Positions 7,780-55,733 of a stretch of DNA of 64,000 nt are shown here, piece after piece. Origin of the DNA: a virus; the IMG/VR virus record IMGVR_UViG_3300014913_001094, positions 1 through 64,000 of that record; one strand, given 5' to 3'. Below the pieces are notes generated by a model, which did no database searches, was not told where the DNA came from, and was given only the letters and a program-made list of their open reading frames with translations. Position 1 is the stretch's first letter. Each line of letters opens with the position of its first letter. The translations under genes were made by a program, and so were the position numbers.

Positions 7780-9594
7780 ATGGCTAAGAAAAAACAAGAT
7801 GATATGCCATTCCTTACTGGTGATCTTTTATCAGATATGGCAATTTTAGATCCAATTGCTTTTGTGGAAAAGACCCTAACGGTTGATGGTAATCCATTTT
7901 TATTATCAGATTGTGGTAGAGATTATCTACATGAGATTTATAGATATCTTTGCTTAGAGGCACCTGGACCAAAAGGAAAGCCATGTGTTATTAGAAAAGG
8001 TCGTCAGGTTGAAATGACGACAACAGCATCTTGCATTTCGTTGTATATTGCAACAAGCGGTGCCTTTGACCATATTCGTGGACTTCATGCATTTCCGCAG
8101 ATTGAGCAGGCTCGTAGATATTCGAAGATTGTCTTTAGTCCTCGTGTAAAAGAGTCAATTAATGGAGCATTGCAGTCTCGTCTCAAAGGAGATGGTTCAG
8201 TGATGTCACAAGAATTCACTGAAGGAAACTTCATTATGATTGAGGGTTCAGGTGAGTCTGGTGACCGTCTTCGTGGTACTCCGTTAGATTATGTGCTGTT
8301 TGATGAGATTCAGGACTTACCTCGAGCAGCTCGAGAAAATACTCAGGAAGCACTGTCTCATAGTAAGTTTGGCCCTCCTGGTTTTGGTTTAGAAATGGAC
8401 TTTGGAACACCAAAAGAAGAGGGTTCTGACTTTCATAGATTATGGATAGATTCCGATCAAAGACATTATTTTGTTAAATGTCCACATTGTGGTCACTATC
8501 AAATTTTGTATTATGATACGGCTCCTGGTAAACGCTTACTTAAGACCAATCTTGCTGAAGGACGTATGATAAAATGTAATGATCGAGAAGATCAAGGTTG
8601 CCAGCAAATCTATGATAAGAGATTGGGAATTAAACATGGTAAGTGGATGCCAACAGTAGAAAATCCCGATACAGCATCGCGACGCGGATATCATATTGAT
8701 CAACTACTGGTTCCTGATATTACACGTGAATCAATAGATAAGAAGTTGGAAGATCGTACTGAAAGAGCGTTTGCAAATGAAGTAATGGGCTTATTCTACA
8801 GTGGTAGAGACACTGGTCCTTCCTTCGCTCAAGTTGTAGAAGTCGTTACAACAGAGCCAAGTACTTTTGATTGGCATATTAATGCTACAGCGCAAGATCG
8901 CTTCACGTGGGCGGGAATTGACTGGGGACAGAGAATTTCAGGTGAAGATGATGAGGGTGCAGGTGGATATACAGTGTTCGTAGCCATCTCTCGCCTCCCC
9001 AATGGTAAATTTAGATTAGAGCGTGCTGAACGATTGGAGCAGGTTAAAGTAATTGATGGACAACTTGATGACATTATCAAGTGGATAAGGTTATATAAGT
9101 GTAGAGTGGTTTGTGCGGATCATGGTTTTGGACATGTTCAAAATCAAGAATTAATGGAGAGGTATCCAGAGATAGTAAAGAAGATATATTCTTCTGCAGG
9201 TACAAATCAAGCATTTAATTATAAGCCTAAGGAAAAACAAATTACAATAGATAAGCACAGAGTCTTTGAAGAAGTGTATGACCTTATGCTTGATCAAAAG
9301 GGCTTTGCATTTCCATATAGTGAGCCAGCAAAAGTAGAGTGGCTCTGTCGACATCTATCAAATGTTGAGATTGTAAGTAAAACCAATCAATCTGGTCGCG
9401 GTAAGAAGATGTATCAAAAACAAGGTGTAACACAACCAATTGATGGTGCCGCGGCACTTGTTTATGCATATGCAGCATACAAGTTTCAGCAGACATCTGG
9501 ATTTAGCAATATGGATACGGGCGGATTTAGTGGAGGACGTAACATGCCAGCACCTGGTGGCGCGATTGTAAGACGACGAGCAGGGAGAAGGTAA
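7780..9594 (+). CDS. terL: Terminase large subunit (lambda gpA-like ATPase plus nuclease domain)
   Basis: KGRQVEMTT Walker A-like, LRG..LDYVLFDEIQD Walker B, GTP motif III, CPHCGH Zn site, RGYHI motif, GIDWG nuclease motif. Confidence 0.93.
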   Translation: MAKKKQDDMPFLTGDLLSDMAILDPIAFVEKTLTVDGNPFLLSDCGRDYLHEIYRYLCLEAPGPKGKPCVIRKGRQVEMTTTASCISLYIATSGAFDHIRGLHAFPQIEQARRYSKIVFSPRVKESINGALQSRLKGDGSVMSQEFTEGNFIMIEGSGESGDRLRGTPLDYVLFDEIQDLPRAARENTQEALSHSKFGPPGFGLEMDFGTPKEEGSDFHRLWIDSDQRHYFVKCPHCGHYQILYYDTAPGKRLLKTNLAEGRMIKCNDREDQGCQQIYDKRLGIKHGKWMPTVENPDTASRRGYHIDQLLVPDITRESIDKKLEDRTERAFANEVMGLFYSGRDTGPSFAQVVEVVTTEPSTFDWHINATAQDRFTWAGIDWGQRISGEDDEGAGGYTVFVAISRLPNGKFRLERAERLEQVKVIDGQLDDIIKWIRLYKCRVVCADHGFGHVQNQELMERYPEIVKKIYSSAGTNQAFNYKPKEKQITIDKHRVFEEVYDLMLDQKGFAFPYSEPAKVEWLCRHLSNVEIVSKTNQSGRGKKMYQKQGVTQPIDGAAALVYAYAAYKFQQTSGFSNMDTGGFSGGRNMPAPGGAIVRRRAGRR

Positions 9595-30476: not shown

Positions 30477-31301
30477 ATGCTCAAAATCACCGCTATTGTA
30501 GTAGTCCTTTGTGGTCTCCTCTTAACTCCCACCTTTGCTGATCAACAAGTCAGAGACATGCATGATCAACTAATGAAAACGGTTGTACGAGTTTCAACAG
30601 AGGGAGGTACTGGCTCTGGTACTGTCATTTATTGTGATGATAGAGACGAGGCAGGCAAATTTGAGACTTATGTTTTAACTAACTATCACGTCATCAGCGA
30701 TGCAATCAACTTCGAAGAGCGTTGGGATTCTAATAGTAAAAGTATGAAAAAAATTCAAGAGCTCGACAGAGTTGAAGTTGAAATTTTTCTATACAATAAT
30801 GAAGGTACAGCTCAAGGTCAAAATGTATTTCAAGCTGACATTATAGCCTATGATGAAAAGGGAGATATAGCCATACTTAAGCTATATACCACCAGAAGCA
30901 TTACGGCTGATGCAAGAGTCGCACCTCTTCTTCCTGAAGGCGCTAGGTTGCAGGTATTTCAGGTAGTATATAATGTTGGATGCTCTCTTGCACATGAACC
31001 AATTCCGACAAAAGGAATGATCACTGATACAGACGATACAATTGATAATCGTCGATATGTAATGACCAACGCAGATATCATTTTTGGTAACAGTGGTGGT
31101 GCTTGTTTTGTTCAACACAATGGTGTGTGGCATCTTGCTGGCATTCCTGCTCGTGGACGAGTTGCCCAAGGTAATATGGTTACTCATATGAACTGGATTG
31201 TTCCTATCGAAAGAATTCGTGATTTCATCATTAAAGAAGAGCTCACTTTTCTTCTCAATAGGAAAGTAACACCAAAGAAAAGTAAAGGTGTAATTCTCTA
31301 G
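30477..31301 (+). CDS. Trypsin-like (S1) serine protease with signal peptide
   Basis: Hydrophobic N-terminus; GSG, TNYHV, DIAIL and GNSGG triad motifs. Confidence 0.9.
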   Translation: MLKITAIVVVLCGLLLTPTFADQQVRDMHDQLMKTVVRVSTEGGTGSGTVIYCDDRDEAGKFETYVLTNYHVISDAINFEERWDSNSKSMKKIQELDRVEVEIFLYNNEGTAQGQNVFQADIIAYDEKGDIAILKLYTTRSITADARVAPLLPEGARLQVFQVVYNVGCSLAHEPIPTKGMITDTDDTIDNRRYVMTNADIIFGNSGGACFVQHNGVWHLAGIPARGRVAQGNMVTHMNWIVPIERIRDFIIKEELTFLLNRKVTPKKSKGVIL

Positions 31302-31309
31302 GAGATCAA

Positions 31310-31498
31310 ATGAATATGGAAGCTGAAGCAGAGAGTTTGAAGATTCAAATTATGGAACTTCAGCGTATGGAATTTGATATTCAAGAAGACATTGAAAAAC
31401 TTTATCAAGACCTCGAGAGAGTACGCAAAGAGCGTACTCTCAAAGAGACTCAGCTTCGTTTAATAGAAGATAAGCAACTTGGTAGGACTGAAGAGTAG
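31310..31498 (+). CDS. Small coiled-coil protein
   Basis: AGGAG RBS; heptad pattern. Confidence 0.7.
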   Translation: MNMEAEAESLKIQIMELQRMEFDIQEDIEKLYQDLERVRKERTLKETQLRLIEDKQLGRTEE

Positions 31499-31508
31499 AA
31501 AGAAAGAA

Positions 31509-32543
31509 ATGTTTGAGAATATTCCCACAGGCTATTTTTATGAAGACCTTTTATTGAGACCTTGTGGTAGTGAAGTCATGTCTCGTATGGATGTTAATAT
31601 GTCAACAGAATTGTTGCCAGGAATAGTTCTCAAGGCTCCAATTATTTCTTCGCCAATGTCTTCAATAACTGAATCAAAGATGGCTATTAAAATGCATGAA
31701 GTCGGTGGATTGGGCATTCTTCATCGCTTTGCAAGCCTTACTCACCTTGAGCAAGAAATGAAAATAATAGGCAAAGAAGTCCCGAAGTCTCATCGTGCTT
31801 TTGCTGTTGGAATTAAAGAAGCCGATACTGCTCTTCTTAGACTCTTAACTCCTCATGCAGATATTATTTGTGTTGATGTTAATGTAGGTCACCATGTTAA
31901 AACGATAGAAATGATCAAATATATTCGTCATGCATATCCTGATCATCAAGTAATTGCTGGAAGTGTCTCAACAGCAGAAGGTACAACAGACTTATGTAAA
32001 GCAGGAGCTCACTGCATTAGAGCGACCAATGGGGGCGGCAGTATGTGTACCACTTTAATTGAAACTGGCGTTGGTGTTCCAACTGCTACTTCGCTTGCTG
32101 AATGTGTTCAAGCTGCTGATCAATATGGAGTAACAGTTATTGCAGATGGTGGCATTACAGGCTCAGGTACCATTGTTAAAGCTCTTGCAATAGGAGCAGA
32201 TGCTGCAATGACTGGTTCATTGTTATCAGGTTCTTCTGCAATTCCAACTGAAGCATTTTTTCTTGATGAAGATGGTAATTATAAAGCTCATTATTATGGA
32301 ATGGCATCGAGAGAGGCGCAGTTGCGCCGTGGCGATGAAGTTAGAGAAGGTACAGCTCCAGAAGGAATTAGTCGAAGTGTGCCAGTACGAGGAAAAACAA
32401 GTGTCATACTTGAGAGATTGATTAATGGGATTAGATCAGGTATGTCGCAGGTAAATGCAAAAGATCTGTCAGCTCTAAGAGCTAATGCACAATGGGTAAA
32501 AGTAAATAAGTGGCCAAATTCGTTTTCAGGAAAAATGAAATAA
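31509..32543 (+). CDS. IMP dehydrogenase / GMP reductase family protein (no CBS domain)
   Basis: PIISSPM, GGLGILHRF, GGGSMCTT catalytic loop, VIADGGI, YYGMAS, APEG, GIRSGMS. Confidence 0.9.
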   Translation: MFENIPTGYFYEDLLLRPCGSEVMSRMDVNMSTELLPGIVLKAPIISSPMSSITESKMAIKMHEVGGLGILHRFASLTHLEQEMKIIGKEVPKSHRAFAVGIKEADTALLRLLTPHADIICVDVNVGHHVKTIEMIKYIRHAYPDHQVIAGSVSTAEGTTDLCKAGAHCIRATNGGGSMCTTLIETGVGVPTATSLAECVQAADQYGVTVIADGGITGSGTIVKALAIGADAAMTGSLLSGSSAIPTEAFFLDEDGNYKAHYYGMASREAQLRRGDEVREGTAPEGISRSVPVRGKTSVILERLINGIRSGMSQVNAKDLSALRANAQWVKVNKWPNSFSGKMK

Positions 32544-37954: not shown

Positions 37955-38696
37955 GACAGAGCCCAATAAAGAAAAGATGCAAACAATATGGGATGCTGGA
38001 TTTCGGTATCTTGAAATTTATACAACTGTTCAAAATATCAATAAGGATAGTGAGGACTTACTTAATTCATTTGAATTTGAATATGCTATACATGCTCCTA
38101 TCTATTCTTTTGATGAGAGTGTAATTGATTTTGCTCATCATGTTGGAGCACGAATTATAAATACACATAAGATTCTTAATCCTGATAGATTTAGAGAATT
38201 AGTACAATACGCTAGAGGAAAAAATATAACAATAACAATAGAAAATGATTCACTTCCTTCAGCTCATCAAATTAAAGATGGACAGTTGATAGTGATGCCA
38301 CCAGAGCCCTTTCATGCAGCTTCAGATGGAGAGAGAATAGTACGAGACATATTAGGAGTAAAGTTGTGCTTAGATATTGAGCACGCTTGGTTAAGAGGAG
38401 AATATAGTCAGATTCTTACAGCACACGCTTCACATCACATTAGACATGTTCATTTAACGGGCTACATATCATCCAATTCAAAAGGATTTCATAGGCCTGT
38501 ATATGAGAGTGACTTTTTAGTAGAGAATACAATTCATTACCTAGCACGAGAAAGCTACGAAGGTTTTGTAGTATGTGAGCACAATGTGCAGTATCATACA
38601 TTTGAAATATGGAAGAGATCTTTTGATTTTTGTAACGACATTATAGTAGAGAAAGAAATGCTAAATAGGACCAAATTAGCTAGGAGAACCAAATGA
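37929..38696 (+). CDS. Sugar-phosphate isomerase/epimerase-like TIM barrel (AP endonuclease 2 family)
   Basis: IHAP, TIEN, LCLDIEH, HVHL, H.P and VCEH metal-ligand motifs. Confidence 0.75.
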   Translation: MKIMKLAAKTEPNKEKMQTIWDAGFRYLEIYTTVQNINKDSEDLLNSFEFEYAIHAPIYSFDESVIDFAHHVGARIINTHKILNPDRFRELVQYARGKNITITIENDSLPSAHQIKDGQLIVMPPEPFHAASDGERIVRDILGVKLCLDIEHAWLRGEYSQILTAHASHHIRHVHLTGYISSNSKGFHRPVYESDFLVENTIHYLARESYEGFVVCEHNVQYHTFEIWKRSFDFCNDIIVEKEMLNRTKLARRTK

Positions 38697-40642
38697 ATTT
38701 TCGCCTAAAAACAAGTACAAACATTCAACAAGCTATTGGAAGAAGAATGTATCCAGATCCACATATGGCTATTGTTGAGCTTGTAAGTAATTCTTATGAC
38801 GCTGATGCCGATAAGGTACATGTTATTGTAACAGCAGATAAGATTATTGTCCACGACGATGGTTGGGGCATGACAGAAGATAATCTAGCCGGATTCTTTA
38901 CGATTGGTAAAAGTTCGAAAGCCCCTTCAGAAAAGGGCAGAGAGCCAATTGGAACATTCGGAATTGGTAAATTTGCTATTCTTAGTATGGCAGAGCAGTT
39001 CTTAGTATTCTCAAAGTCTGAAACTGGTCCCTACAGAAGCTGTGCATTTTATTCACACGAAGCAGCAATAGCAGCAGGTGATTTAATCGACGACTATGAG
39101 ATTGAAGTAAGTACATATTTAACAGAAGAAGAGTATGAAACTGCTCTTGTTGCAGAGATTGGTACAGAGCTGTATGATGTAAATAAAACTGGCGTTTGCA
39201 TTATTATGAAGAATCTTCATAGACAATATTCTGATATGGCTATTCGAGAGAGGCTTTCTGAAATGCTTGTTCCCCAAGCAGAGAGCGAGTTCAGTGTATT
39301 TGTTAATGATGAGCTGCTTGAAGAAAAGTATGTTCATGGTCTTCGTTACGATATTGATCTTACCACTGAATTTGGTCCAATCACAGGCGAGATTGTCATA
39401 GCAGCAGAGAGCATTGATCTTGCAGATCAGGCTGGTGTTCAAATTCAAGTACAGAGTAGAGGAGTATATAGAACCTATTTTGGACTTGAAGGTTATGATA
39501 AGTCGGCAGGTCGTCTTTCAGGATATGTGGTTGCCAATTGGCTTAAGGATGTGATCTCTTCTAATAGAACAGATTTGATTGCCTCTCCAGAAAAAACAGC
39601 ATTTGAAGCTGCTGTTACAGAAGCTATTCGTTCCATCCTCGACGTTGAAGCTCAGAAGAGAGCAGCAGAAGACGAAGAACGAAAAGCAGAAGTTCTTAAT
39701 AGAGCTGTTAGAACAGTAACAAATATTTTAAACAAGCTTCCAGAGTTTGATTTTCCACAGAGACCTATGCAGTCAATGATTCCTGTAGGGATTCTCGAAG
39801 ATGTTCTCGCCGGTAAAGATCCAGCAGGAGAAATAAATGAAGATGGAAGTATGGAAGCAACAGTATCTGCTGCTTCAGGTGCTTTTAAGGAATTGTTAAA
39901 ATATCTAAGAGAAATAGCACCACAATTCAATGTTGATCCTTCTGATGTTCCTACTGAAGTTCGTACCATCTCTGAATTGCTCGATGTAGTTGAGAAGGTA
40001 CTTGGAGTATCGCTGGTTGAACTAATTGGAAAAGAAGCTCTTGAGCAATTAATTAGTGCAGCTATCCCAGAAGCAGAAATGGAAGATGAAGAAAGAATTA
40101 GAGGTGCATTTAGATTAGTTAGTCAAAGAATTGAGCAGCTAATAAGAGAAATTACAGCACAAGAAGATATGCCAACAGAATGTGCCCAACCAGCAGAAGG
40201 TGTTTCTTTACGTACTCCTATTACCAATTCGTTGGAGCTAGGTAAGATTAATCTTACTCCTATTGCTCCTCCACTTGACTTTTCTTCTTTAGATCTCAAT
40301 ATTAATCCTCAAGAAGACGGATATGTTCCAGATGCACCACAAGCACAAATAAACAACTTTGTTGCTGCTAGTGTTGAGCATCTTGGAGAAGATGGTCCCG
40401 CAAGCATGGTAGCTGAGGGAGCAGGTTTCGACGGTATTCAAATTTACATTAATGCAGATCATCCAGTATATCAAGGTATCAAAGAGGATTCCCCAAGTAT
40501 GCTTGCTTTTTATCAAGCACAGTTAATTTTTGGTGAGGTTATTTTAATGCAGAACTTTACACCAAGAGAGGCAATGGATAAACAAGCAGAACTCATGAGA
40601 TTACTTGTCAATACTGACAGAAAGATTCTTAAATTTAAATAA
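38693..40642 (+). CDS. GHKL (MORC/Hsp90-like) ATPase
   Basis: ELVSNSYDADA, DDGWGM, IGTFGIGK, TGV motifs; C-terminal IYINADHPVY. Confidence 0.88.
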   Translation: MNFRLKTSTNIQQAIGRRMYPDPHMAIVELVSNSYDADADKVHVIVTADKIIVHDDGWGMTEDNLAGFFTIGKSSKAPSEKGREPIGTFGIGKFAILSMAEQFLVFSKSETGPYRSCAFYSHEAAIAAGDLIDDYEIEVSTYLTEEEYETALVAEIGTELYDVNKTGVCIIMKNLHRQYSDMAIRERLSEMLVPQAESEFSVFVNDELLEEKYVHGLRYDIDLTTEFGPITGEIVIAAESIDLADQAGVQIQVQSRGVYRTYFGLEGYDKSAGRLSGYVVANWLKDVISSNRTDLIASPEKTAFEAAVTEAIRSILDVEAQKRAAEDEERKAEVLNRAVRTVTNILNKLPEFDFPQRPMQSMIPVGILEDVLAGKDPAGEINEDGSMEATVSAASGAFKELLKYLREIAPQFNVDPSDVPTEVRTISELLDVVEKVLGVSLVELIGKEALEQLISAAIPEAEMEDEERIRGAFRLVSQRIEQLIREITAQEDMPTECAQPAEGVSLRTPITNSLELGKINLTPIAPPLDFSSLDLNINPQEDGYVPDAPQAQINNFVAASVEHLGEDGPASMVAEGAGFDGIQIYINADHPVYQGIKEDSPSMLAFYQAQLIFGEVILMQNFTPREAMDKQAELMRLLVNTDRKILKFK

Positions 40643-41805: not shown

Positions 41806-43257
41806 ATGAAAGTAGTAACTCGATTTGCACCCACAATTAGTGGAGACCTACATATTGGTGGTTTGTATAATGCTCTTGTAAATTATTTGTTTGCTAAAAG
41901 GTATGATGGTGATTTTAAGCTTCGACTCGATGGAATATTTACCAACGATGACAGGCTACAATGGCAAAAGAGTCTTGAAGAGGATCTAATAACCTTTGGT
42001 TTAATTCCAGACGAGGTTCTTAGGTGCTCTGATAGACTTGAATATTACAAGACAACAGCAACAAGCATGCTTTTGGATCACCCAAGATCATACTACTGCG
42101 ACTGTACAGTGCAAGATTTATTGAAGCGTGCTGATAAAAGTGATGTAGGATTTTATCATTTATATCGTCCAGAAAAGTATCCGCCATATTGTAAGATAGC
42201 GCAAATCAAGTTATTTGGTTTAGAAAATGACAACAATATTGCAGTAGGATGTGGAGTTAAATCAGGCACTACATCGCAGAATAGTTCTATTGAATGTCTA
42301 ACAGGACATACTGCAAATAAGAATAAGTATTGGGAGCCAGTAGATTCAGGTTATGCATTTCATCCAATGAAGCCTGAAGTGACTATTCACTTCAAAGAGG
42401 CAACAGATGTGAGTGGAATCGAAATTGTATGGCGAGATAGACCAATTCAAGAATACAAAGTAGAAGTGTGTACAGAAGGTAAAGGGAGTCAGGAAGTTGT
42501 TCACTGCAGTAAACCAGGAAGGCATTTTGTAGACCATAAACCAGGCCAACCTTATCCTACTTTAACAAGTGATAAGCAAAGCTTTGCTGCAGTTAAGGGT
42601 ACATATGTGAGGATAACTTTTATTGGATGTCCTCGACCTGTAGATCGACCATATTTTTATGATTATCATTGTCGTGATCTTGGTAAGTCTTTAGATCTTA
42701 CCGAGCGCGATGCAACAATGAGAATGAAAAATAAAGATTGGTATGAGGGTGGCTACAGTGGTCCAGTAGACTTTTTGACTCAAGAGTCAACCATTCAGCC
42801 CGAAGATCTTAATGTTGATACCTGTTGGTGGTTTGGACGAGCACCAGATTTAGTTTTTACAAGCCCGCTTGACGATCATGACCTTGGAGTTACACATTTG
42901 CTGAGAGGTGAAGATATTCAACCTTTTAGTGTGATAGAGTCACAAATTGCAGAAGCAATGGGAATGTTGGTAAAACCCCAGCTCTACCATGGAATGATAA
43001 TAGATACAAGCGGATATAAGTACAGTAAGTTTGTTGAGAGTACACCAGTGAGACAACATTTAAAAGACGGAATAACCGCTGATATGATCTTAACCTATCT
43101 TGCACACAGAACAGGATTAGTTGAAAGTCTTGATAAGATTATGACGCCCAAACAGCTGGTACAGTGCTTTGAGGCAAGTAGTATTTTGACTCAAAATATT
43201 GTGATTGATGAAGAAATCATGATTGAAGTGATCAAAGAGAGATTTATAAGGAGCTAA
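41806..43257 (+). CDS. Glutamyl-tRNA synthetase / GluQ-RS catalytic-domain paralog with an inserted discoidin (F5/8 type C)-like domain
   Basis: TRFAPT.SG.LHIGG (HIGH), YYCDC...YDYHCR Zn motif, DD.DLGVTHLLRGED, KYSK (KMSKS); no anticodon-binding domain; ~185-aa insert. Confidence 0.8.
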   Translation: MKVVTRFAPTISGDLHIGGLYNALVNYLFAKRYDGDFKLRLDGIFTNDDRLQWQKSLEEDLITFGLIPDEVLRCSDRLEYYKTTATSMLLDHPRSYYCDCTVQDLLKRADKSDVGFYHLYRPEKYPPYCKIAQIKLFGLENDNNIAVGCGVKSGTTSQNSSIECLTGHTANKNKYWEPVDSGYAFHPMKPEVTIHFKEATDVSGIEIVWRDRPIQEYKVEVCTEGKGSQEVVHCSKPGRHFVDHKPGQPYPTLTSDKQSFAAVKGTYVRITFIGCPRPVDRPYFYDYHCRDLGKSLDLTERDATMRMKNKDWYEGGYSGPVDFLTQESTIQPEDLNVDTCWWFGRAPDLVFTSPLDDHDLGVTHLLRGEDIQPFSVIESQIAEAMGMLVKPQLYHGMIIDTSGYKYSKFVESTPVRQHLKDGITADMILTYLAHRTGLVESLDKIMTPKQLVQCFEASSILTQNIVIDEEIMIEVIKERFIRS

Positions 43258-46259: not shown

Positions 46260-47228
46260 ATGACAGCTTTAGGAATAACATGCTGGTCAGCGACAAAGGC
46301 TAATTTTGAAATAATGAAAGAACTTGGTTGCACTGAGTTTTACTCTGTAGTAGAGTGGTGTAATCATCATAAGTCTCCTGATCATTATTACTGGAGTCAG
46401 TTAGATAAAGAATTTGCTCTTGAAGAACAATATGGAATTAAGAGCATAAGAGTAATAATGCACACACCATTGTGGGCATCAGGAGTTGATCGTACAGATT
46501 GTAAGTTTAGACCTAGATCTTATCCGCCAAGAACGTTAGAATATTATGGTCGTTTTTGTGCTGCTCTTGTAAGAAGATATCCAGATAGAGAATGGATACT
46601 TTGGGGTGAGCCAGATAACTCTTGGCCACGAGAAGACGCGAAAATTATACAGTGGGCAGGTGATGCTGAAACATATGCTAAAATGGCAAAGTATGCATAT
46701 GTGGAAATGAAGAAAGCTGATTCTAAATGTGTTGTGGGACTTGGAAGTCTTGTTGGAGCAACGCTGAATGGAACTTATCGAACAGTAGTAGAGAATAATA
46801 AGCCTCTCAATAAGCTACCGTTTTTTGAAAAGTTGTTAGAATTAGATATGGGCAATTATTGTGATTTCATTCCCCTTGATCTCTATTGCTGGGGTTACGG
46901 AGGATCAAGAAACTTTTTAGCAGGAATTCGAAAAATAAAGGGAATAATGGCTGACTTTAATGTAAAGAAGCCACTATATATAATGGAGTGTGGTGCCAAG
47001 ATAACTCCTCCAGGAGGAAAGATGAGAGAGGAATTTCATCACGAGGTAGTGAATGAAGAAACTCAGGCTGGTTTCTTACTACGCGCCTACAAGTGGTCCC
47101 AAGAGAACAAAATTGACAAATTGTTCTGGCATACCTTAAAGGATAGTAATTGGGGAGTCATTAATCGCTTGGGTAGACCACATCTGAGTTACCATGTATT
47201 TAAAGCCATGAAAGCGGGTTCGTTTTGA
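46260..47228 (+). CDS. Clan GH-A glycoside hydrolase-like protein (GH39/GH5/GH42-like)
   Basis: YYWSQLD, HTPLWA, WILWGEPD (acid/base), KPLYIMECG (nucleophile), LFWH; alternative start at 46230. Confidence 0.75.
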   Translation: MTALGITCWSATKANFEIMKELGCTEFYSVVEWCNHHKSPDHYYWSQLDKEFALEEQYGIKSIRVIMHTPLWASGVDRTDCKFRPRSYPPRTLEYYGRFCAALVRRYPDREWILWGEPDNSWPREDAKIIQWAGDAETYAKMAKYAYVEMKKADSKCVVGLGSLVGATLNGTYRTVVENNKPLNKLPFFEKLLELDMGNYCDFIPLDLYCWGYGGSRNFLAGIRKIKGIMADFNVKKPLYIMECGAKITPPGGKMREEFHHEVVNEETQAGFLLRAYKWSQENKIDKLFWHTLKDSNWGVINRLGRPHLSYHVFKAMKAGSF

Positions 47229-48109
47229 GAGCACAGAGTATTTCGAGTTTGATTATGTTCATCGTTACAATTACTTTCTGCATAAGCGCTACAGAGGTGC
47301 CTATAGCTGAGTCACAAGATAGAGGTGCTCCAATTATTGTTCAAGTTGGGCAAACAGAGCAAGAAGAGATTACACAAAAGCAGGAAGAAATGCTCTTTCC
47401 GACTGTTCGTCTTGCTGTAACTCATAAGTCTGGAGGAGTCACAATACATGGAGCTGGAAGCGGATCTGTAGTGTCTTCAAAGTTTCTAGGGGTTGAAAAA
47501 ACAGAGTCTGGAGAAAGAGATATTTATGAAAATTTCATAATCACAGCCCACCATGTTGCTGTAAGTCCTTTTAAAAAGAAGAGTGAGTCAGAAATTGTAG
47601 TAAGTGTATTTTGCGATGAACCGCTATTGTCTATGAAAGTTTGTGGAAAAGTTGTTTATGGAGACAAGCTAGCAGATTTTGCAATTGTACGTCTTGATTA
47701 TGACGGTCCTCTGTTTGTTGCTAAAGTATTGCCTTCTGAGTTTACTCCAAGAGCTTTTCAAACAAGCTACACATTGGGATGTCCTCTTGGAATATCAGTA
47801 CCTTTGCCCATTGAAGGTATTATTAGATTGCCTGAAGCAAATAGGAAAGATGTGCAAATGGGGGTCACAAGTGCAGGAGCTCTGCCAGGAAATAGTGGTG
47901 GTGGAGTTTATGTTAAATTTAATAATACATATTATCTTGTTGGAGTTATCTCTTTTATTTCAGTAAACAATGAGATTGTGATTGGTGGTCCTTGTGGATT
48001 TCATCTAAGTGTTGATGTAGGAGTCCCTGAGTTAGCATGGTATGTAACAATTTCACATATAGAAGAAATCCTTCTTAATGAAACTTATGAAGAGTATTTA
48101 GGGAGATAA
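47225..48109 (+). CDS. Trypsin-like (S1) serine protease with signal/anchor peptide
   Basis: GSGSVV, ITAHHV, DFAIV, PGNSGGGV. Confidence 0.88.
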   Translation: MRAQSISSLIMFIVTITFCISATEVPIAESQDRGAPIIVQVGQTEQEEITQKQEEMLFPTVRLAVTHKSGGVTIHGAGSGSVVSSKFLGVEKTESGERDIYENFIITAHHVAVSPFKKKSESEIVVSVFCDEPLLSMKVCGKVVYGDKLADFAIVRLDYDGPLFVAKVLPSEFTPRAFQTSYTLGCPLGISVPLPIEGIIRLPEANRKDVQMGVTSAGALPGNSGGGVYVKFNNTYYLVGVISFISVNNEIVIGGPCGFHLSVDVGVPELAWYVTISHIEEILLNETYEEYLGR

Positions 48110-49010: not shown

Positions 49011-51062
49011 ATGGTAGACTATAACGATACACCACAATCTGGTGGTCCTTTAGAATCGTCATCGCTTCGTGATAATTTTCAGATTTTGAGAAACGCAACT
49101 GGATTATATGCATCAGAAACAGATCTTTTAAGTTTAGCTGTGAATGTACATGAAGGGTACTATCAAACTAATTATGTCAATAGTATTTTTCTTTCTGAAC
49201 AAGATAGTCCTGCTTTAGCAGCTAATCATGTAAGTGGCGACGGTGGTGTTCTTGGTCAACAAAGAATTGCTACACTTACAGTTGAAGCAATAGGAAGTTT
49301 CCCTTCAATAGTAAGCACTTTGAGCTGGGTTGTAGGAAGCTGGGAAACACCTCCTACTACTCCTAACCCTCCTCCTATTTTTCCTAATCGTATTCCAATT
49401 TGCAATGTTTTGATTACATTCGATATGACAGAGGTAACAAACGACCTCATCACCGACACTCGTCCTTTAATAAGTCTTGGTGGAGATGGTCCTACAGGTA
49501 TCACAGGGACACAAGGAATAACAGGTCTTCAAGGTATCCAAGGTGCAACTGGGAGTCTAGGTATTCAAGGAGACACAGGTGCTTTAGGAAATACAGGAGT
49601 CCAAGGTATCCAAGGTGACCAAGGAGATACAGGAGTCCAAGGACTACAAGGTGACACAGGTACTCAAGGTACAATTGGAAGTGCAGGAATCCAAGGCGAC
49701 ACTGGAATCCAAGGCGACACGGGTATCCAAGGTGACACGGGTCCTATAGGAGCGACAACTCTTCAAGCAGCTTATGATGGTGGAAATACGATTATTCCAA
49801 CTGGTCTTGGTCTTGGTGGGGATGAAGTAGAGATATTCCCAACTCCTGGCACAGGAGGAATCAGAATGGTATCTTCTGGAGGTAGTTTTCCTTCTCTCCT
49901 TATTCAACATATGACTAATGGACCAGCGAACCCAAGCGGACAACCGATCCGCATAGAAACAGGAACTGTTGGTAATGGAGATAGTACAACAGGAACGGCT
50001 CTACGCATAGTTGCAGATAGTTCTTTTTCAAGTGGGAATGGAACCTCTGGCTTACATATATCTACTGGGCATTCAAATTCTGGTAGAGCAGTGTTCATTG
50101 ATAGTAGAGGGACATCGGCAAATGCAATAGGTCTTCGAATCGACAGAATAGATGCCTCTAGCGTAGGAGCCCTAGGCTCCCTCATGGCTGTTACAAATTC
50201 TGCCTCTGGTCGTTTGATGGTTATATCAGATAGATTGTCAACGAGTACTGCTGATACAATATTATTTGATCACAGGACTCAAGGCATCGTTCTCAATATT
50301 GATTCAACAAATACAGCAAATGCAGCTAATATTGTTGATATCACAAATAGTGGTACTGGTGATAGTGTTGAAATTAATCAAGTTGGTGCTGGTGCAGCTC
50401 TTGATATAAATTATACCAATACTGGTTCAAGTAATGTAATTGATATTGTTAGTTCAAGCACTGGTGATGTTATTGCTATTGTTAAGAACGATACTGGTGT
50501 TGGAAGTCCAATTGATATTATTAACAAAGGTTCAGCCGCATCAATCAGGATTATTGATGAAGGTACCGGAACAATGCTCGACCTGACCCAAAGTGGGTCA
50601 GGTATAGCGATGCTACTAAATAAATCACACACTGGTAGCGACACTTGTCTTGACATCAACAATAGTGGTACAGGTACTGCAATATCTATTGCTCAATATG
50701 CATCGAGTACAGCAATGTTAATAGAATCGACATCAGCAAGTACAGCAGATTGTGTTCAAATTAAGAATAGTGGTTCAGGTAGAGGTCTTTACATTTCACA
50801 AAGTGCCACAGCAAGTGCAAGTAAAGTGATAGATATTGATAATAGTGGTACAGGAATTGGTATTAATCTCAATCAATCAACAACTACAGCCCCTGCCTTT
50901 GTAATGGGTGGTGCTGCTGATAGGTTTGAATTGACAAATTCTAAAACACCATTGAATGCTTCAGATACAGGTACAGTAGGAACTATATGTTGGGATGCAA
51001 GTTATGTTTATGTTTGCACAGCAACGAATACTTGGAAGAGAACAGCAATAGCAAGTTGGTAA
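49011..51062 (+). CDS. Fibre protein with a short collagen-like segment and beta-solenoid repeats
   Basis: About 30 G-X-Y triplets, TLQAAYDGG, I.NSGTG repeats, C-terminal GT.GTICWD..YVYVCTATNTWKR fibre-tip motif. Confidence 0.8.
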   Translation: MVDYNDTPQSGGPLESSSLRDNFQILRNATGLYASETDLLSLAVNVHEGYYQTNYVNSIFLSEQDSPALAANHVSGDGGVLGQQRIATLTVEAIGSFPSIVSTLSWVVGSWETPPTTPNPPPIFPNRIPICNVLITFDMTEVTNDLITDTRPLISLGGDGPTGITGTQGITGLQGIQGATGSLGIQGDTGALGNTGVQGIQGDQGDTGVQGLQGDTGTQGTIGSAGIQGDTGIQGDTGIQGDTGPIGATTLQAAYDGGNTIIPTGLGLGGDEVEIFPTPGTGGIRMVSSGGSFPSLLIQHMTNGPANPSGQPIRIETGTVGNGDSTTGTALRIVADSSFSSGNGTSGLHISTGHSNSGRAVFIDSRGTSANAIGLRIDRIDASSVGALGSLMAVTNSASGRLMVISDRLSTSTADTILFDHRTQGIVLNIDSTNTANAANIVDITNSGTGDSVEINQVGAGAALDINYTNTGSSNVIDIVSSSTGDVIAIVKNDTGVGSPIDIINKGSAASIRIIDEGTGTMLDLTQSGSGIAMLLNKSHTGSDTCLDINNSGTGTAISIAQYASSTAMLIESTSASTADCVQIKNSGSGRGLYISQSATASASKVIDIDNSGTGIGINLNQSTTTAPAFVMGGAADRFELTNSKTPLNASDTGTVGTICWDASYVYVCTATNTWKRTAIASW

Positions 51063-51848: not shown

Positions 51849-54800
51849 ATGACTACTGTCAGCATATGTATGATTGTTAAGAATGAGGAAGAGGTCCTTG
51901 CACGATGCCTCAAATCTCTCGGTAATTTTCCTGATCAATTAGTTATAGTAGACACAGGTTCAATAGATAGAACAATTGAAATTGCAAAGGAATTTGGAGC
52001 TGAAATTCATCACTTCGAATGGATACGAGACTTTGCCAAAGCGCGTAACTATTCCTTTAGTAAGGCAACTTGCGACTATGTTTTCTGGCTTGATGGCGAC
52101 GATGAAATTGCACCAGAAGAGCTTGAAAAGCTAATGACTCTCAAATCTAATCTCACCAAAGATATGTATCTAATGGTTTATGATTACTTCCAAGATGCAG
52201 ACGGTAATCCTAAATGTGATCTTTGGAGAGAGCGCCTTGTAAAACGAGAGTTGGGATTGAAGTGGCGCTATCCAATTCACGAATGTATCCCTATGGATCA
52301 GCGTCCTCTTGAAACAGAGCAAGTTCCAATTCGAATTACACACAAACGAACAGAGGCTGGATTTGCTAGCGACCTCAGCCGTAATATAGATATTCTTGAA
52401 AATGCTGTAAGAGGCGATTATGCCGACGATCCTCGTGTTAGATATTATTTAGCTAAAGAGATTCATGACAATAGAGATTTTGAAAGAGCATCAAGAGAGT
52501 ACACAAAGTTTCTTAATATGAATGCCGGCTGGTATGAAGATAAATTATATGCACAATTTAAATTAGCTCAGTGTTATTATGAAATGGGCTGCGACAAACA
52601 AAGGCAAGTAGAGAAATTTGAAAAGCAAGCAAGAGAAGCAAAGAATAGTAAGAAGCGAGAACAAGCAACAAGAGCAGCTAATCGCCGCAAGAAGCAGGTA
52701 AGTATACAGCATGATAATGCAAGAAAAGCCGCAAAGCAAGCGATTAAAAGCGATTCTCAATTTGCAGAGCCATACTATGTTCTTGGTCAACTTGCAATGG
52801 ATGAGCAAGATCATGATGAAGCCATCTACTGGTTTGAAAAAGCGTTTAGACCATTTCCTAATGTTCTAAGTCCTATTCGAAGAGACTTTTATACATGGAT
52901 GCCAGCTCTTCAGTTATGTGTATGTCACAGTAACCGTGGTGACTATGAACAAGCAAGCTATTACAATGAACAAGCTGCCAAGGAAAATCCACAACATTCT
53001 TCTATTATTCATAATACGAAATATTTTGCTGAGAAGCTTGAAGAAAAAACGCAAAGAAAAACTCCAGAAGGAGATATTTCTGTTAAGTTGAATCTTGGTA
53101 GTGGAAATAAAAGATACAAAGATTACACGAGTTGTGATCTGTTTCCAGGAGCAGAAGTAGATGAAGTATTTCCCCTAAATGATATTCCATATGAAGACCA
53201 AACCGTAGATGCAATTCATAGTGAACATTCTCTTGAGCATCTTCGTCATGTCGACGCAAGGTCAGCCATACAAGAATGGGCACGAGTTTTGAAGCCAGGT
53301 GGAGAGTTGCATCTTCAGATTCCAGACCTTGAAGAGTGTTGTAGAAAATATATAGAGGCAGTACAAAACGGAGATCGAAGACTACAACAATGGTATATGT
53401 ATACAATATTCGGTATACAAAAATCACAAGCCGACGAGCCGGATGAAGGTCAAATTCATTATACAGGATTTAATTTGGCTGAGATTTTAGACTTACTTAA
53501 AGATGCTGACTTCATAATAGATTATTATGGAAAATACGATGGACATAGTACGCCGTCTCTTGAGATAAGAGCTGTTAAAGCAATCGGTTCAATCAGAATA
53601 GGATGGTTGGGTCAAACATGTCTTGAAAGTCCACAGTATAGAATTCGAACACACCATATAGATAGATGGCTTCGCAGCAGAGGATATCGTACAGAGATCT
53701 CCCAAAAAGATCAAAAGTATGACACTGTGATTGCTGATAACGGTACACCATATAGGACAATACAACAATACAAGAAAGAGGGTTCAAGAGTAATTCTCAA
53801 TTTATGTGAAGACTATGACACAATGCTTTCTAAAGAAGAGATGAAAGTAGAACAAAGAAGATATGAGGTTGTAGATCTTATAGTATGTTGCTCTCATGCC
53901 CTAGCTGAGAAGTTGAAAAAATATAATACTGTTGTAATAGAAGACGCAGTTGAAGTCGATTTTAATTTAAACTGCACTTATGAAAACAAAGAACAATTGA
54001 CAGTTGGTTGGATCGGTATGGGTGGTAATGTCGTTCATGCAGAAAGACTGCGTCCACTAATTGAAGAGCTAGGATATAAGCTTGTCACAATTCATGAACA
54101 CGATAATGCAGATGTAAAGTGGGATTTGAACACTTGGCAACAAGAGTTAGCAAAATGTGATATGGCAATAGCTCCAATTGATCATCATAAGCAACCCAGC
54201 AAATCAAATAATAAACTGACAACATATATGGCTCTTGGTCTTCCTACTGTCGTCAGTCCACTAGATGCATATAAACACGTTGTTGATAATGGTCCTTCTA
54301 ATTATCCATTTTACATTGCATATAATGATGAAGGATGGAAACATTGTTTGGCTTGTCTAGGAAATGTTGAGCATCGAAGAGAAATGGGATTTGACGCAAA
54401 AGAAAAAGCAAAAGAATATAGCCTTGATGCAATAGGTCAGAAATGGGTAGATGTCTTAATTGAAACTGACTGGATGAGCGATGAAGATTGGGATAAGTTA
54501 TCTGTATCATCACTCGAAAGATTATATGAAGACGAAGATAGAGCAGAACAACTTGTTGATATAATTATTCCTACATATGGTAAAGATGATTATCTTCAAG
54601 CATGTATCAATAGCATTAAGACATGTACAACTGACTATCCATATAATATTATAGTTGTTGATAGCCTAAAGCTGGGACTGAATTTTTCTCAAGCAGTAAA
54701 TCATGGAATTAGACAATCAACAGCATCGCATGTATGTATTATGAATGACGATGTAATAGTATCAAAAGGATGGTTAAAGCCATTGCTTGAAGAGTTAAAA

Positions 54801-55733
54801 GATGATGTTGGTTTTGCGAACCCATTGAGTAATTGCGACAAGGGATGGTTACATAATTATGATCTTAAAGCAGGTGAAGTAAATCTGCTTCCTGGCGTTC
54901 ATAAGCTAGGCGAGGTTGATCCATATGCAATTTATGATTTTAAATCTCCTTCTACAAAAAGATATAAACGAGATTGGCTTCCTTTATACTGCACTTTAGC
55001 AACAAAAGAAGCTATTGAAAAAATAGGATATCTCGATGAAGAGTTTGAAACAGGAAGTGAAGATTTAGATTATTGTAAGAGAGCAGAAAAGCTTGGAATA
55101 AAATGTGCAGTAGCAGAAGATTCGTTTGTGTTTCATTTTGGAGGAGTGAGTCGCAAAGCACATGAAATGGAAGATCGTAGTGTTCATCAAGAAGAAGACA
55201 CAAAGAATCAGAACAGAATTGGATTTAAATACAATCGTCCGCTCGTTGTAATCCAGTCAGGATTAGCCTATGAGGACTGGGATGCGAATACGTTAAGAGA
55301 AAAGGGTTGTGGTGGTAGTGAACTAGCTGCTTGTATGATGGCAGAAAATTTTGCTAAGCAGGGATACAGAGCGGTAGTATTTGCTCAAACAGGAAAACCG
55401 AAGCAGGTAATTAATCAAGTAGAGTGGTACGATCAAAGTGAGTGGTTGAATTTCATCGACATGAATCATATTAGTATCTGCGTTGTTTCGCGCTATGCAA
55501 ACTATCTTGAAGATTCAATAAGAGCAGATCAGCTATGGCTCTGGACGCATGATATTTTTGCGATGTGTAGTAAGGTTGGAGATGTCGACTTAGTTCAAAA
55601 GAATTACGATAAGCTGACAGGAATTTTTGTATTATCCAAATGGCATGCCTGCTTTATGGCTGATTACCATGGGATATCAACAGAAAAGACATGGGTTACA
55701 GGAAATGGTATAAATTTGAAGGGAAGTGAATAA
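51849..55733 (+). CDS. Multidomain glycosyltransferase: GT2 + TPR + SAM methyltransferase + GT4 + GT2 + N-terminal half of a GT4
   Basis: SICMIVKNEE..VDTGS.D..DFAKARN..WLDGDD; TPR helices; LNLGSG..HSLEHL..RVLKPGG; KSNNKL..YMALGLP; DIIIPT..MNDD..EDLDYC; GCGGSE..WTHD..LSKWH..GNGI. Confidence 0.9.
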   Translation: MTTVSICMIVKNEEEVLARCLKSLGNFPDQLVIVDTGSIDRTIEIAKEFGAEIHHFEWIRDFAKARNYSFSKATCDYVFWLDGDDEIAPEELEKLMTLKSNLTKDMYLMVYDYFQDADGNPKCDLWRERLVKRELGLKWRYPIHECIPMDQRPLETEQVPIRITHKRTEAGFASDLSRNIDILENAVRGDYADDPRVRYYLAKEIHDNRDFERASREYTKFLNMNAGWYEDKLYAQFKLAQCYYEMGCDKQRQVEKFEKQAREAKNSKKREQATRAANRRKKQVSIQHDNARKAAKQAIKSDSQFAEPYYVLGQLAMDEQDHDEAIYWFEKAFRPFPNVLSPIRRDFYTWMPALQLCVCHSNRGDYEQASYYNEQAAKENPQHSSIIHNTKYFAEKLEEKTQRKTPEGDISVKLNLGSGNKRYKDYTSCDLFPGAEVDEVFPLNDIPYEDQTVDAIHSEHSLEHLRHVDARSAIQEWARVLKPGGELHLQIPDLEECCRKYIEAVQNGDRRLQQWYMYTIFGIQKSQADEPDEGQIHYTGFNLAEILDLLKDADFIIDYYGKYDGHSTPSLEIRAVKAIGSIRIGWLGQTCLESPQYRIRTHHIDRWLRSRGYRTEISQKDQKYDTVIADNGTPYRTIQQYKKEGSRVILNLCEDYDTMLSKEEMKVEQRRYEVVDLIVCCSHALAEKLKKYNTVVIEDAVEVDFNLNCTYENKEQLTVGWIGMGGNVVHAERLRPLIEELGYKLVTIHEHDNADVKWDLNTWQQELAKCDMAIAPIDHHKQPSKSNNKLTTYMALGLPTVVSPLDAYKHVVDNGPSNYPFYIAYNDEGWKHCLACLGNVEHRREMGFDAKEKAKEYSLDAIGQKWVDVLIETDWMSDEDWDKLSVSSLERLYEDEDRAEQLVDIIIPTYGKDDYLQACINSIKTCTTDYPYNIIVVDSLKLGLNFSQAVNHGIRQSTASHVCIMNDDVIVSKGWLKPLLEELKDDVGFANPLSNCDKGWLHNYDLKAGEVNLLPGVHKLGEVDPYAIYDFKSPSTKRYKRDWLPLYCTLATKEAIEKIGYLDEEFETGSEDLDYCKRAEKLGIKCAVAEDSFVFHFGGVSRKAHEMEDRSVHQEEDTKNQNRIGFKYNRPLVVIQSGLAYEDWDANTLREKGCGGSELAACMMAENFAKQGYRAVVFAQTGKPKQVINQVEWYDQSEWLNFIDMNHISICVVSRYANYLEDSIRADQLWLWTHDIFAMCSKVGDVDLVQKNYDKLTGIFVLSKWHACFMADYHGISTEKTWVTGNGINLKGSE

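Follow-up and report, generated by a model that had tools for sequence, protein, structure and literature searches.

We analysed the first 64 kb (64,000 nucleotides, called the window below) of a 91,453-base viral record, IMGVR_UViG_3300014913_001094 of IMG/VR, whose completeness is 54% by CheckV, and focused on a gene on its plus strand for a protein of 483 residues that resembles glutamyl-tRNA synthetase (GluRS). The phage enzyme is a GluRS paralog of the size of GluQRS with intact ATP motifs, and a domain of the CBM32/discoidin type interrupts its catalytic core. Our preferred reading is that it acts as a tRNA-independent ligase, which would activate glutamate or a close analogue and transfer it to a carbohydrate acceptor. 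Going by motifs, architecture and gene context, from which the activity as well as the amino acid and the acceptor are inferred, we give this reading somewhat less than an even chance (about 0.45). A shade more tentatively, the enzyme may represent a whole phage clade of glycan aminoacyl-ligases derived from aminoacyl-tRNA synthetases, which carry a circularly permuted built-in carbohydrate-binding module (CBM) and would add glutamate or a related acid to glycans of the fibres or the virion. The domain architecture is without precedent as far as we searched, and the enzyme would be a further case of aminoacyl-tRNA synthetase paralogs recruited to acyl transfer outside translation.

The catalytic core is of the GluRS type. 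Pfam tRNA-synt_1c (PF00749, E 2.8e-30) matches the protein in two stretches, residues 2-107 and about 347-460, and the core motifs are conserved across the family: TRFAPTISGDLHIGG (with HIGG at 16-19), RLDG at 40-43, PDLVFTSPLDD at 347-357, THLLRGEDI, and KYSK at 405-408. The anticodon-binding domain PF19269, which is present in every one of the ordinary GluRS from our homolog search, gave no Pfam match in the 483-residue protein, which ends 75 residues past KMSKS. An earlier note on this DNA, made from its letters alone, had described both the open reading frame and its class I GluRS core lacking an anticodon-binding domain, and both descriptions are borne out by these results. The matches to models of the characterised families were partial, with 106 bits for the GluRS equivalog TIGR00464 of NCBIfam (cut-off 289.95) and 88-91 bits for the GluQRS models TIGR03838 and PRK05710 (cut-offs 250-277). 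An AlphaFold2 model of the whole protein, built on 19 family sequences (mean pLDDT 86.7, pTM 0.85), matched GluRS structures in the PDB by Foldseek (6b1p at E 4e-16, plus many others), and also E. coli GluQRS 4a91 at E 1.4e-11 and TM 0.64 (0.63-0.64 when normalised to GluQRS). The closest structure cluster in ESM Atlas was a 327-residue 'putative Glutamyl-Q tRNA(Asp) synthetase' (TM 0.81), and the feature search of ESM Atlas matched nothing usable. The PHROGs match, phrog_35649 of function unknown, was restricted to residues 347-469. Because the catalytic-core tree described below puts the clade apart and its scores are far under the cut-offs of both GluQRS and GluRS, the enzyme clade is not GluQRS in the strict sense but a separate lineage. 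Isoelectric point and net charge were also tried as a proxy for tRNA binding and were abandoned, as the family values (pI 5.4-8.5) are like those of GluRS and do not discriminate.

Conservation was judged over clade members that are 24-57% identical to the window protein. Residues that are invariant in the clade, or conserved to 90% or more, are H16, G18, K405, S407, K408, D356, D357, R6, R40, D42, G43, L349, S353, R367, G368 and D370, and the invariance of HIGH and KxSK at such divergence argues for a working adenylating enzyme. In crystals of E. coli GluQRS, Glu is contacted by Arg9, Ala11, Ser13, Glu45, Tyr172 and Arg190, among which Glu45 touches the alpha-amino group of the substrate (PMC12736043). 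Our alignment A3 shows identical residues in the phage protein for Arg9, Ala11 and Arg190 (R6, A8 and R367), conservative replacements for Ser13 and Glu45 (T10 and D42), and the loss of Tyr172 (L349). Both arginines gripping the side-chain carboxylate of Glu, R6 and R367, are retained. Moreover, S353 is what we take to be the equivalent of Asn191 of T. thermophilus GluRS. The three changes of the pocket, E to D, Y to L and N to S, are fixed clade-wide, and the same remodelled pocket is carried by the members without insert. From the aligned residues, the phage pocket is predicted to have lost the Tyr hydroxyl and to make a shortened contact with the alpha-amino group. The earlier note had pointed to an altered Glu pocket, and the changes from RIED to RLDG and from PTY to P(N/D)L are in fact invariant in the clade. 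Since both carboxylate arginines are retained, glutamate or a close acidic analogue is a likelier substrate than an arbitrary acid. Most simply, the enzyme would be active and adenylate glutamate or an acid closely similar to it, in a pocket that was probably remodelled early in the clade.

In the window protein, CxC at 98-100 and YDYHC at 285-289 are separated by 185 residues, while the canonical YDGxC of GluRS stands 20 residues after CxC in 39 of 43 GluRS. An extra YxxxC motif, Y125-PPY-C129, is located 24 residues past CxC, and both MAFFT and hhalign place the canonical motif of GluRS and GluQRS on this Y125-C129. We rejected Y125-C129 as a half of the canonical zinc motif and put its alignment down to gap cost, since only the YDxHC after the insert is universal and matches the canonical signature. 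In the wider clade, the post-insert YDx(H/Y/F)C-R is universal and K124 is invariant, YPxxC is often absent and C129 is variable; the post-insert motif is exactly YDGHC in P0017, P0018, P0127 and P0135. The insert-free members P0136 (295 aa) and P0137 (290 aa) run from CxC through about 43 residues to YDxHC. Because the post-insert motif alone is universal and the insert-free members have this arrangement, sequence comparison places the CBM32 inside the zinc loop, between the two halves of the zinc motif and directly after a clade-specific R-x-E-K-Y linker. The position in the zinc loop, with CxC and YxxxC about 185 residues apart, had been claimed in the earlier note, and the wider-clade alignment and the insert-free members agree with it. 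C129 may be an additional zinc ligand. In E. coli GluQRS, the zinc ligands are Cys101, Cys103, His118 and Cys119 in a mobile segment, 101-129 (PMC12736043). The GluQRS-type traits, a truncated core and CxC...Y-x-x-H-C, are both found in the phage protein, where C98, C100, Y285, H288 and C289 are split by the 185-residue stretch.

The insert itself has a discoidin-like fold. Pfam F5_F8_type_C (PF00754) matches residues 171-273 at E 1.5e-6, with a marginal score of 28.8 bits against a cut-off of 28.2, and covers positions 21-113 of the 127 of the profile. When residues 108-300 were modelled alone (pLDDT 72.9), matches by Foldseek and VIA-align were confined to CBM32/F5-8C modules. The Foldseek matches (E 3.5e-5 to 1e-3) were the CBM32s of Clostridium perfringens GH84, GH31 and GH89, chitosan-binding modules, and the C domains of factors V and VIII. 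VIA-align, a search independent of Foldseek, gave 4zxe_A with Z 13.2 and a root-mean-square deviation (rmsd) of 2.2 over 114 residues, and the NanJ CBM32 with Z 12.2; 96 chains reached Z of at least 8, and the top ones were nearly all CBM32, F5-8C or related modules. The top structural matches are modules binding chitosan, galactose, GalNAc and fucose, and bacterial CBM32s (Z 11-13) score above animal discoidin domains (Z about 9.7-9.8). In the structure searches, a check that the earlier note had proposed, the whole-protein model led to GluRS and GluQRS and the insert modelled alone to CBM32 modules only, in line with the F5/8C discoidin-like domain that the note had recognised.

The strand order of the insert differs from the usual one. 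The Pfam match ends at profile position 113 of 127, leaving the last strand absent on the C-terminal side, and both models have an additional confident strand on the N-terminal side (CKIAQIKLFG; protein residues 130-137). In every sequential structural alignment, the matched part begins at model residues 32-36, past this first strand, and the final 10-16 residues of the target have no counterpart. Because the C-terminal strand is absent, an extra N-terminal strand is present, and the alignments skip it and leave the target ends, the modelled insert is likely to be circularly permuted. Circular permutation had been suggested in the earlier note, and the stop of the profile, the unmatched first strand and the unmatched target ends agree with it as indirect support. 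For nine members, the N-terminal strand segment of 38-44 residues was scanned against Pfam at E up to 10, and F5/8C was not among the matches, the segments being too short to inform. The mean pairwise identity is 21% for the insert and 41% for the core, which puts the rate of evolution of the insert at about twice that of the core, as is usual for ligand-adapting modules.

Homologs of the enzyme were found on viral or metagenomic contigs only. The first search gave 18 full-length homologs of 35-55% identity, all metagenomic and none annotated. The exhaustive profile search gave 55 representatives at E of 1e-30 or below, about 20 further clusters at 50% identity matched in full length, and the full-length matches overall amount to about 35-40 clusters at 50% identity. 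The family size is about 440-480 residues, and four more members are on IMG/VR contigs. A scan of viral contigs with the close-family alignment found no relative beyond the window's own record, and INPHARED phages gave only N-terminal GluRS-like matches, none of them full length. Among 185,579 species genomes, the close alignment and narrow patterns found only ordinary GluRS (best E 2e-15 over about 110 residues), with no member from a cell or a prophage among the matches; P0136, which has no insert, gave no match when used as the query. A maximum likelihood tree of the catalytic core only unites the family in a single clade with an SH-aLRT support of 100, which includes neither GluRS nor the branch of Salmonella GluQRS and P0211. 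In this clade, P0136 and P0137, both without the insert, are nested among insert-bearing members (supports 96 and 94), and therefore the tree suggests that the CBM32 may have been lost secondarily in them. In the literature, we found no GluRS-type enzyme with a discoidin or CBM32 insert, no truncated GluRS of phages and no description of this clade, and the moraphage paper (PMC12619734) mentions no such gene.

Genes for the large terminase, portal, prohead protease and major head protein start at 7780, 15249, 20037 and 28466 of the window, and therefore the record comes from a large tailed phage; the long open reading frames of the window are all on the plus strand. To describe the neighbourhood of the GluRS-like gene, we refer to homolog loci by number, L002-L016 being close relatives of the window and L022, L023, L024 and L025 distant members. 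The gene order is conserved in the window and L002-L016 down to 35% identity: a GT1-like protein of 670 residues (GT, glycosyltransferase), a xylose-isomerase-like TIM barrel (missing in L012 and L014), a GHKL ATPase (HATPase_c_3), variable small open reading frames (a LamG protein in the window), the GluRS-like gene, variable fibre-like genes, a beta-propeller-like protein, and a PslG-like protein with a weak match. A GT1 gene is also present downstream of the GluRS-like gene in the window, together with a fibre having an S74-chaperone-like end, collagen-repeat proteins of 683, 1581 and more than 827 residues, and a large protein of fused glycosyltransferase, TPR and methyltransferase domains (Table 1). 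The record continues past the window with no fewer than 13 further GT genes, together with genes for a pyruvyl transferase, a GT-D-like protein and a DegT aminotransferase. Glycosyltransferase domains in this phage number about 20, and three of its fibre proteins are collagen-like.

The distant members are placed differently. In L025, the GluRS-like gene is directly followed by a GFO/IDH/MocA oxidoreductase, a DegT/DnrJ/EryC1 aminotransferase (E 1e-108), a B12-radical SAM enzyme, a GT2 and a methyltransferase. Adjacent on its upstream side, L022 has a GT9 and, directly before the gene, a radical SAM-GT2 fusion and a polysaccharide pyruvyl transferase, and L023 and L024 have a GT2-GT2-TPR protein and a propeller. 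Thus, glycan genes stand beside the GluRS-like gene in at least four different gene arrangements, and the co-occurrence of homologs with glycosylation genes, which the earlier note had proposed to test, is seen in several independent gene orders (window type, L025, L022 and L023). The note had spoken of a virion glycosylation cluster: glycosylation genes are indeed nearby, but the arrival of the glycan on the virion is a presumption. The proposal had been staked on a discoidin fold of the insert and on a link with glycosylation genes, and the analysis found both. Neither the record nor eight homolog loci yielded a tRNA gene, and a tRNA-guanine transglycosylase (TGT) was likewise absent from the available record, which is 54% complete.

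Table 1. Positions in the window of the GluRS-like gene, its parts and selected neighbouring genes (residue numbers refer to the 483-residue protein; scores of the whole protein are given in the text).
Feature	Position	Strand	Support
GluRS-like gene, complete, 483 aa: class I core with CBM32 insert, without anticodon-binding domain	41806..43257	+	PF00749, PF00754, no PF19269; AlphaFold2; Foldseek GluRS/GluQRS
HIGH motif (HIGG, residues 16-19)	41851..41862	+	H16, G18 invariant in close and wide family
RLDG (residues 40-43) in place of canonical RIED	41923..41934	+	R40, D42 invariant, G43 at least 90% in wide clade; alignment A3
Zinc motif, first half, C98-D-C100	42097..42105	+	C98, C100 invariant; align with CxC of GluRS and GluQRS
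RPEKYPPYC (residues 121-129), clade-specific linker ending at C129, base of the insert	42166..42192	+	R121, E123, K124, Y125, P126, P127, C129 invariant in close family
CBM32/F5-8C (discoidin-like) beta-sandwich insert, residues 129-282	42190..42651	+	PF00754; insert-only AlphaFold2 model against CBM32 Z 13.2, Foldseek E ~4e-5
First strand of the insert, CKIAQIKLFG, probably substituting the usual last strand of the fold	42190-42219	+	models, structural alignments
Zinc motif, second half, Y285-D-Y-H-C289 (canonical YDGHC type)	42658..42672	+	Y285, D286, C289 invariant in wide clade
Additional loop of 26 residues (311-336), modelled with low confidence and confined to part of the family	42736..42813	+	alignment A1; pLDDT down to 56 at 311-320
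Second Rossmann half with substrate pocket: PDLVFTSPLDD, LRGEDI	42844..42918	+	L349, S353, G368, D370 invariant; D356, D357, R367 at least 90% in wide clade
KMSKS motif (KYSK, residues 405-408)	43018..43029	+	K405, S407, K408 invariant
Short helical C-terminal tail, 75 aa, replacing anticodon-binding domains	43030..43254	+	AlphaFold2 helices 415-481; no PF19269
GHKL ATPase, 649 aa, immediately preceding the GluRS-like gene in every close relative	38693-40642	+	HATPase_c_3 E 2.4e-18
GT2-TPR-methyltransferase-GT4-like-GT2 protein, 1294 aa, downstream	51849-55733	+	
Collagen-containing, tail-fibre-like protein (the third with collagen repeats)	49011-51062		
Collagen-repeat protein, 1581 aa	56760-61505		Pfam Collagen E 8e-175
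Collagen-repeat protein, ~1630 aa, running on into L020 1-2427	61517-64000		Pfam Collagen E 1e-96

Some further features of the gene and its surroundings are recorded here. The 26-residue loop in the second Rossmann half is carried only by P0001-P0003, P0011, P0013, P0019 and P0121. The GHKL ATPase has 33-79% identity among the close relatives and weak similarity to MORC and MutL, and it is absent from the contexts of L022, L023 and L025. Homologs of the 1294-residue protein recur near the GluRS-like gene in L013-L015, L022 and L023. B12-binding radical SAM enzymes are encoded beside the GluRS-like gene at L022 7141-8970 (fused to GT2) and L025 3235-4482, which suggests C-methylation or other radical tailoring of the same glycan. 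Directly downstream of the gene in distant relatives, tandem paralogous small open reading frames were seen, five of about 165 residues in L014 (12076-14594) and four of about 210-225 residues in L022 (11345-14862), and a similar array is present at L013 4208-5268; these arrays occupy the place of the fibre-like genes of the window, and the small frames of L013, L014 and L022 had no Pfam match. After the head genes and before the glycan/fibre module, there is a gene of the IMPDH/GMP-reductase family (31479-32543, plus strand, E 4.6e-82), which is conserved in L004. Two trypsin-like serine peptidase genes are located after the capsid genes (30477-31301) and inside the fibre module (47225-48109), and an endonuclease VII domain protein is encoded amid GT genes at L020 10308-10823 (record 74308-74823).

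GluQRS activates Glu without tRNA. By analogy with this, the intact motifs of the phage enzyme point to a first step in which ATP and glutamate, or a close acidic analogue, would form an aminoacyl-adenylate in the Rossmann-fold site. In the second step, for which the architecture and the gene context are our guides, the acceptor would be a hydroxyl or amino group of a carbohydrate, neither the 3' end of tRNA nor queuosine. The candidates include a glycan on a glycoprotein or fibre of the phage, or an amino-sugar intermediate, and in contexts of the L025 type the neighbouring oxidoreductase and aminotransferase may supply the acceptor in the form of an amino sugar. The CBM32, growing out of the acceptor-facing zinc knuckle, would hold the sugar substrate near the adenylate, and the sugar would leave the enzyme carrying either a glutamyl ester or an N-glutamyl amide. 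No signal peptide was found in the 483-residue enzyme, and because of this and the requirement for ATP, it would have to act in the cytoplasm of the infected cell alongside the glycosyltransferases of the phage.

Several points weigh against transfer to a carbohydrate. We infer the amino acid, the acceptor and the independence of tRNA all from motifs, architecture and gene context. That the binding face of the CBM32 is directed toward the active site is an assumption. The modelled CBM32 fold is in itself no proof of sugar binding; discoidin-fold domains bind lipids, collagen and proteins, too. The insert-free P0136 and P0137 indicate that the core can probably work without the CBM32. Moreover, the synteny of L002-L016 reflects shared ancestry and is no independent evidence, and the window gene has fibre genes around it, whereas the main GT operon is about 29 kb away. 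The place among fibre genes fits a protein-modifying ligase, which might put Glu onto a structural protein of the phage, such as the Thr/Gln-rich collagen-like fibres, with the discoidin insert docking the protein or collagen. EpmA/PoxA, a paralog of LysRS, lysylates EF-P and would be the analogy for it. The catalytic motifs are intact, the gene sits between fibre-like genes (LamG upstream and the S74-chaperone-like fibre downstream) with three collagen-repeat proteins near, and some discoidin domains (DDR1/2) bind collagen. On the other hand, the best structural matches of the insert are bacterial CBM32s and not the animal discoidin domains, which score lower, and the immediate neighbours in L025 are enzymes of the nucleotide-sugar type and not fibres. 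We regard modification of a protein as rather unlikely, and it would merge into glycan aminoacylation if the fibre is glycosylated.

A tRNA modifier like GluQRS, adding Glu to queuosine or another hypermodified base of host or phage tRNA with the CBM32 as an accessory, seems improbable to us. Among characterised GluRS paralogs, GluQRS alone shares the truncated architecture and CxC...YDGHC, and both arginines for the Glu carboxylate are present, but the clade is apart from the Salmonella GluQRS branch, its scores reach about one third of the GluQRS cut-offs, a 150-residue domain interrupts the acceptor-facing zinc knuckle, and the recurrent neighbours are glycan enzymes. The mostly acidic to neutral net charge is weak evidence in the same direction. 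The available DNA has neither tRNA genes nor TGT, although genes for tRNA or queuosine could lie in the missing part of the 54%-complete genome, which counts against our reading. We hold it just as improbable that the protein is an enzyme of a small-molecule or nucleotide-sugar pathway with a purely structural CBM32, or an inactive structural or adhesive protein on the synthetase scaffold. The insert-free members would fit either form, and the pair of oxidoreductase and aminotransferase adjoining the L025 gene is typical of nucleotide-amino-sugar synthesis. However, members only 24% identical to the window protein still have HIGH, KxSK, the DD pair and the two arginines for the substrate, which makes an inactive protein unlikely, and a purely structural module is not expected to persist in nearly all members across such divergence; in the nucleotide-sugar form the acceptor is still a sugar, which overlaps with our reading. 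Finally, the GTs might glycosylate DNA bases and the enzyme might put an amino acid on the DNA-linked sugar or base, which we think slightly less probable still. Viral GTs are known to hypermodify DNA with diverse glycans (Pyle et al. 2024, as cited in PMC12619734), and the endonuclease VII gene is among the GT genes. Against this, the available record has no hydroxymethylase, DpdA/TGT or other base-modification gene, with the replication module outside the available 54%, and the pyruvyl transferase, DegT, methyltransferases and TPR fusions beside collagen fibres look like polysaccharide or glycoprotein synthesis.

If glycan aminoacylation is the true function, the phage enzyme would open a new enzymatic route to aminoacylated glycans, and would be the first aminoacyl-tRNA synthetase catalytic core whose acceptor-binding element was swapped for a lectin domain. 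It would explain the amino-acid substituents on some glycans and add a tailoring step to the little-studied glycosylation of large phages. To our knowledge, the enzymes placing amino-acid substituents on glycans are mostly unknown, or are of the ATP-grasp or ANL type. As a compact cytoplasmic family with clear motifs, the clade is directly testable in vitro and could become a tool for glycan aminoacylation. If tRNA or a protein is modified instead, it is still an unannotated, phage-restricted clade of synthetase-like enzymes with an unusual insertion.

The known systems resemble the phage enzyme each in a different part. Bacterial GluRS (PF00749 + PF19269; 6B1P, 8I9I and 1J09) shares the catalytic fold and motifs and gives the best sequence and Foldseek matches, but the phage enzyme is without the stem-contact and anticodon-binding domains, and the identity of about 35-40% extends over the first ~105 residues only. 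The CBM32/F5-8C modules (4ZXE, 2V72, 2J1A and 4LKS) share the beta-sandwich (Z 11-13, rmsd 2.0-3.0 over 110-125 residues, identity 13-22%), whereas the phage domain is inserted in an enzyme domain and not appended, lacks the C-terminal strand and has an extra N-terminal one. GluQRS/YadB (PDB 1NZJ and 4A91; TIGR03838) is likewise a GluRS core of about 300 residues without the anticodon-binding domain, having HIGH, KMSKS, CxC...YDGHC and both carboxylate arginines. The phage clade differs from it as a separate lineage at about one third of the family cut-off score, with the 150-residue CBM32 in the zinc loop and a pocket changed at Glu45 (Asp), Tyr172 (Leu) and the Asn of GluRS (Ser), and all its members found come from viral or metagenomic contigs, with glycan genes alongside. 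GluQRS esterifies the cyclopentenediol of queuosine, and such a transfer of Glu to a non-ribose, sugar-like diol is a precedent for a sugar-like acceptor. MshC, a CysRS paralog of mycothiol synthesis, ligates Cys to the amine of the amino sugar GlcN-Ins via an aminoacyl-adenylate without tRNA. It is a precedent in the mode of action only, since MshC is derived from CysRS, is cellular, has no carbohydrate-binding module and is homologous only in the class I fold. Synthetase paralogs outside translation, such as GluQRS, MshC, EpmA and the cyclodipeptide synthases, are textbook examples of enzyme recruitment, and a lectin domain grafted into the acceptor-facing zinc knuckle of a GluRS core would make a new case, in which the switch of substrate is readable from the architecture.

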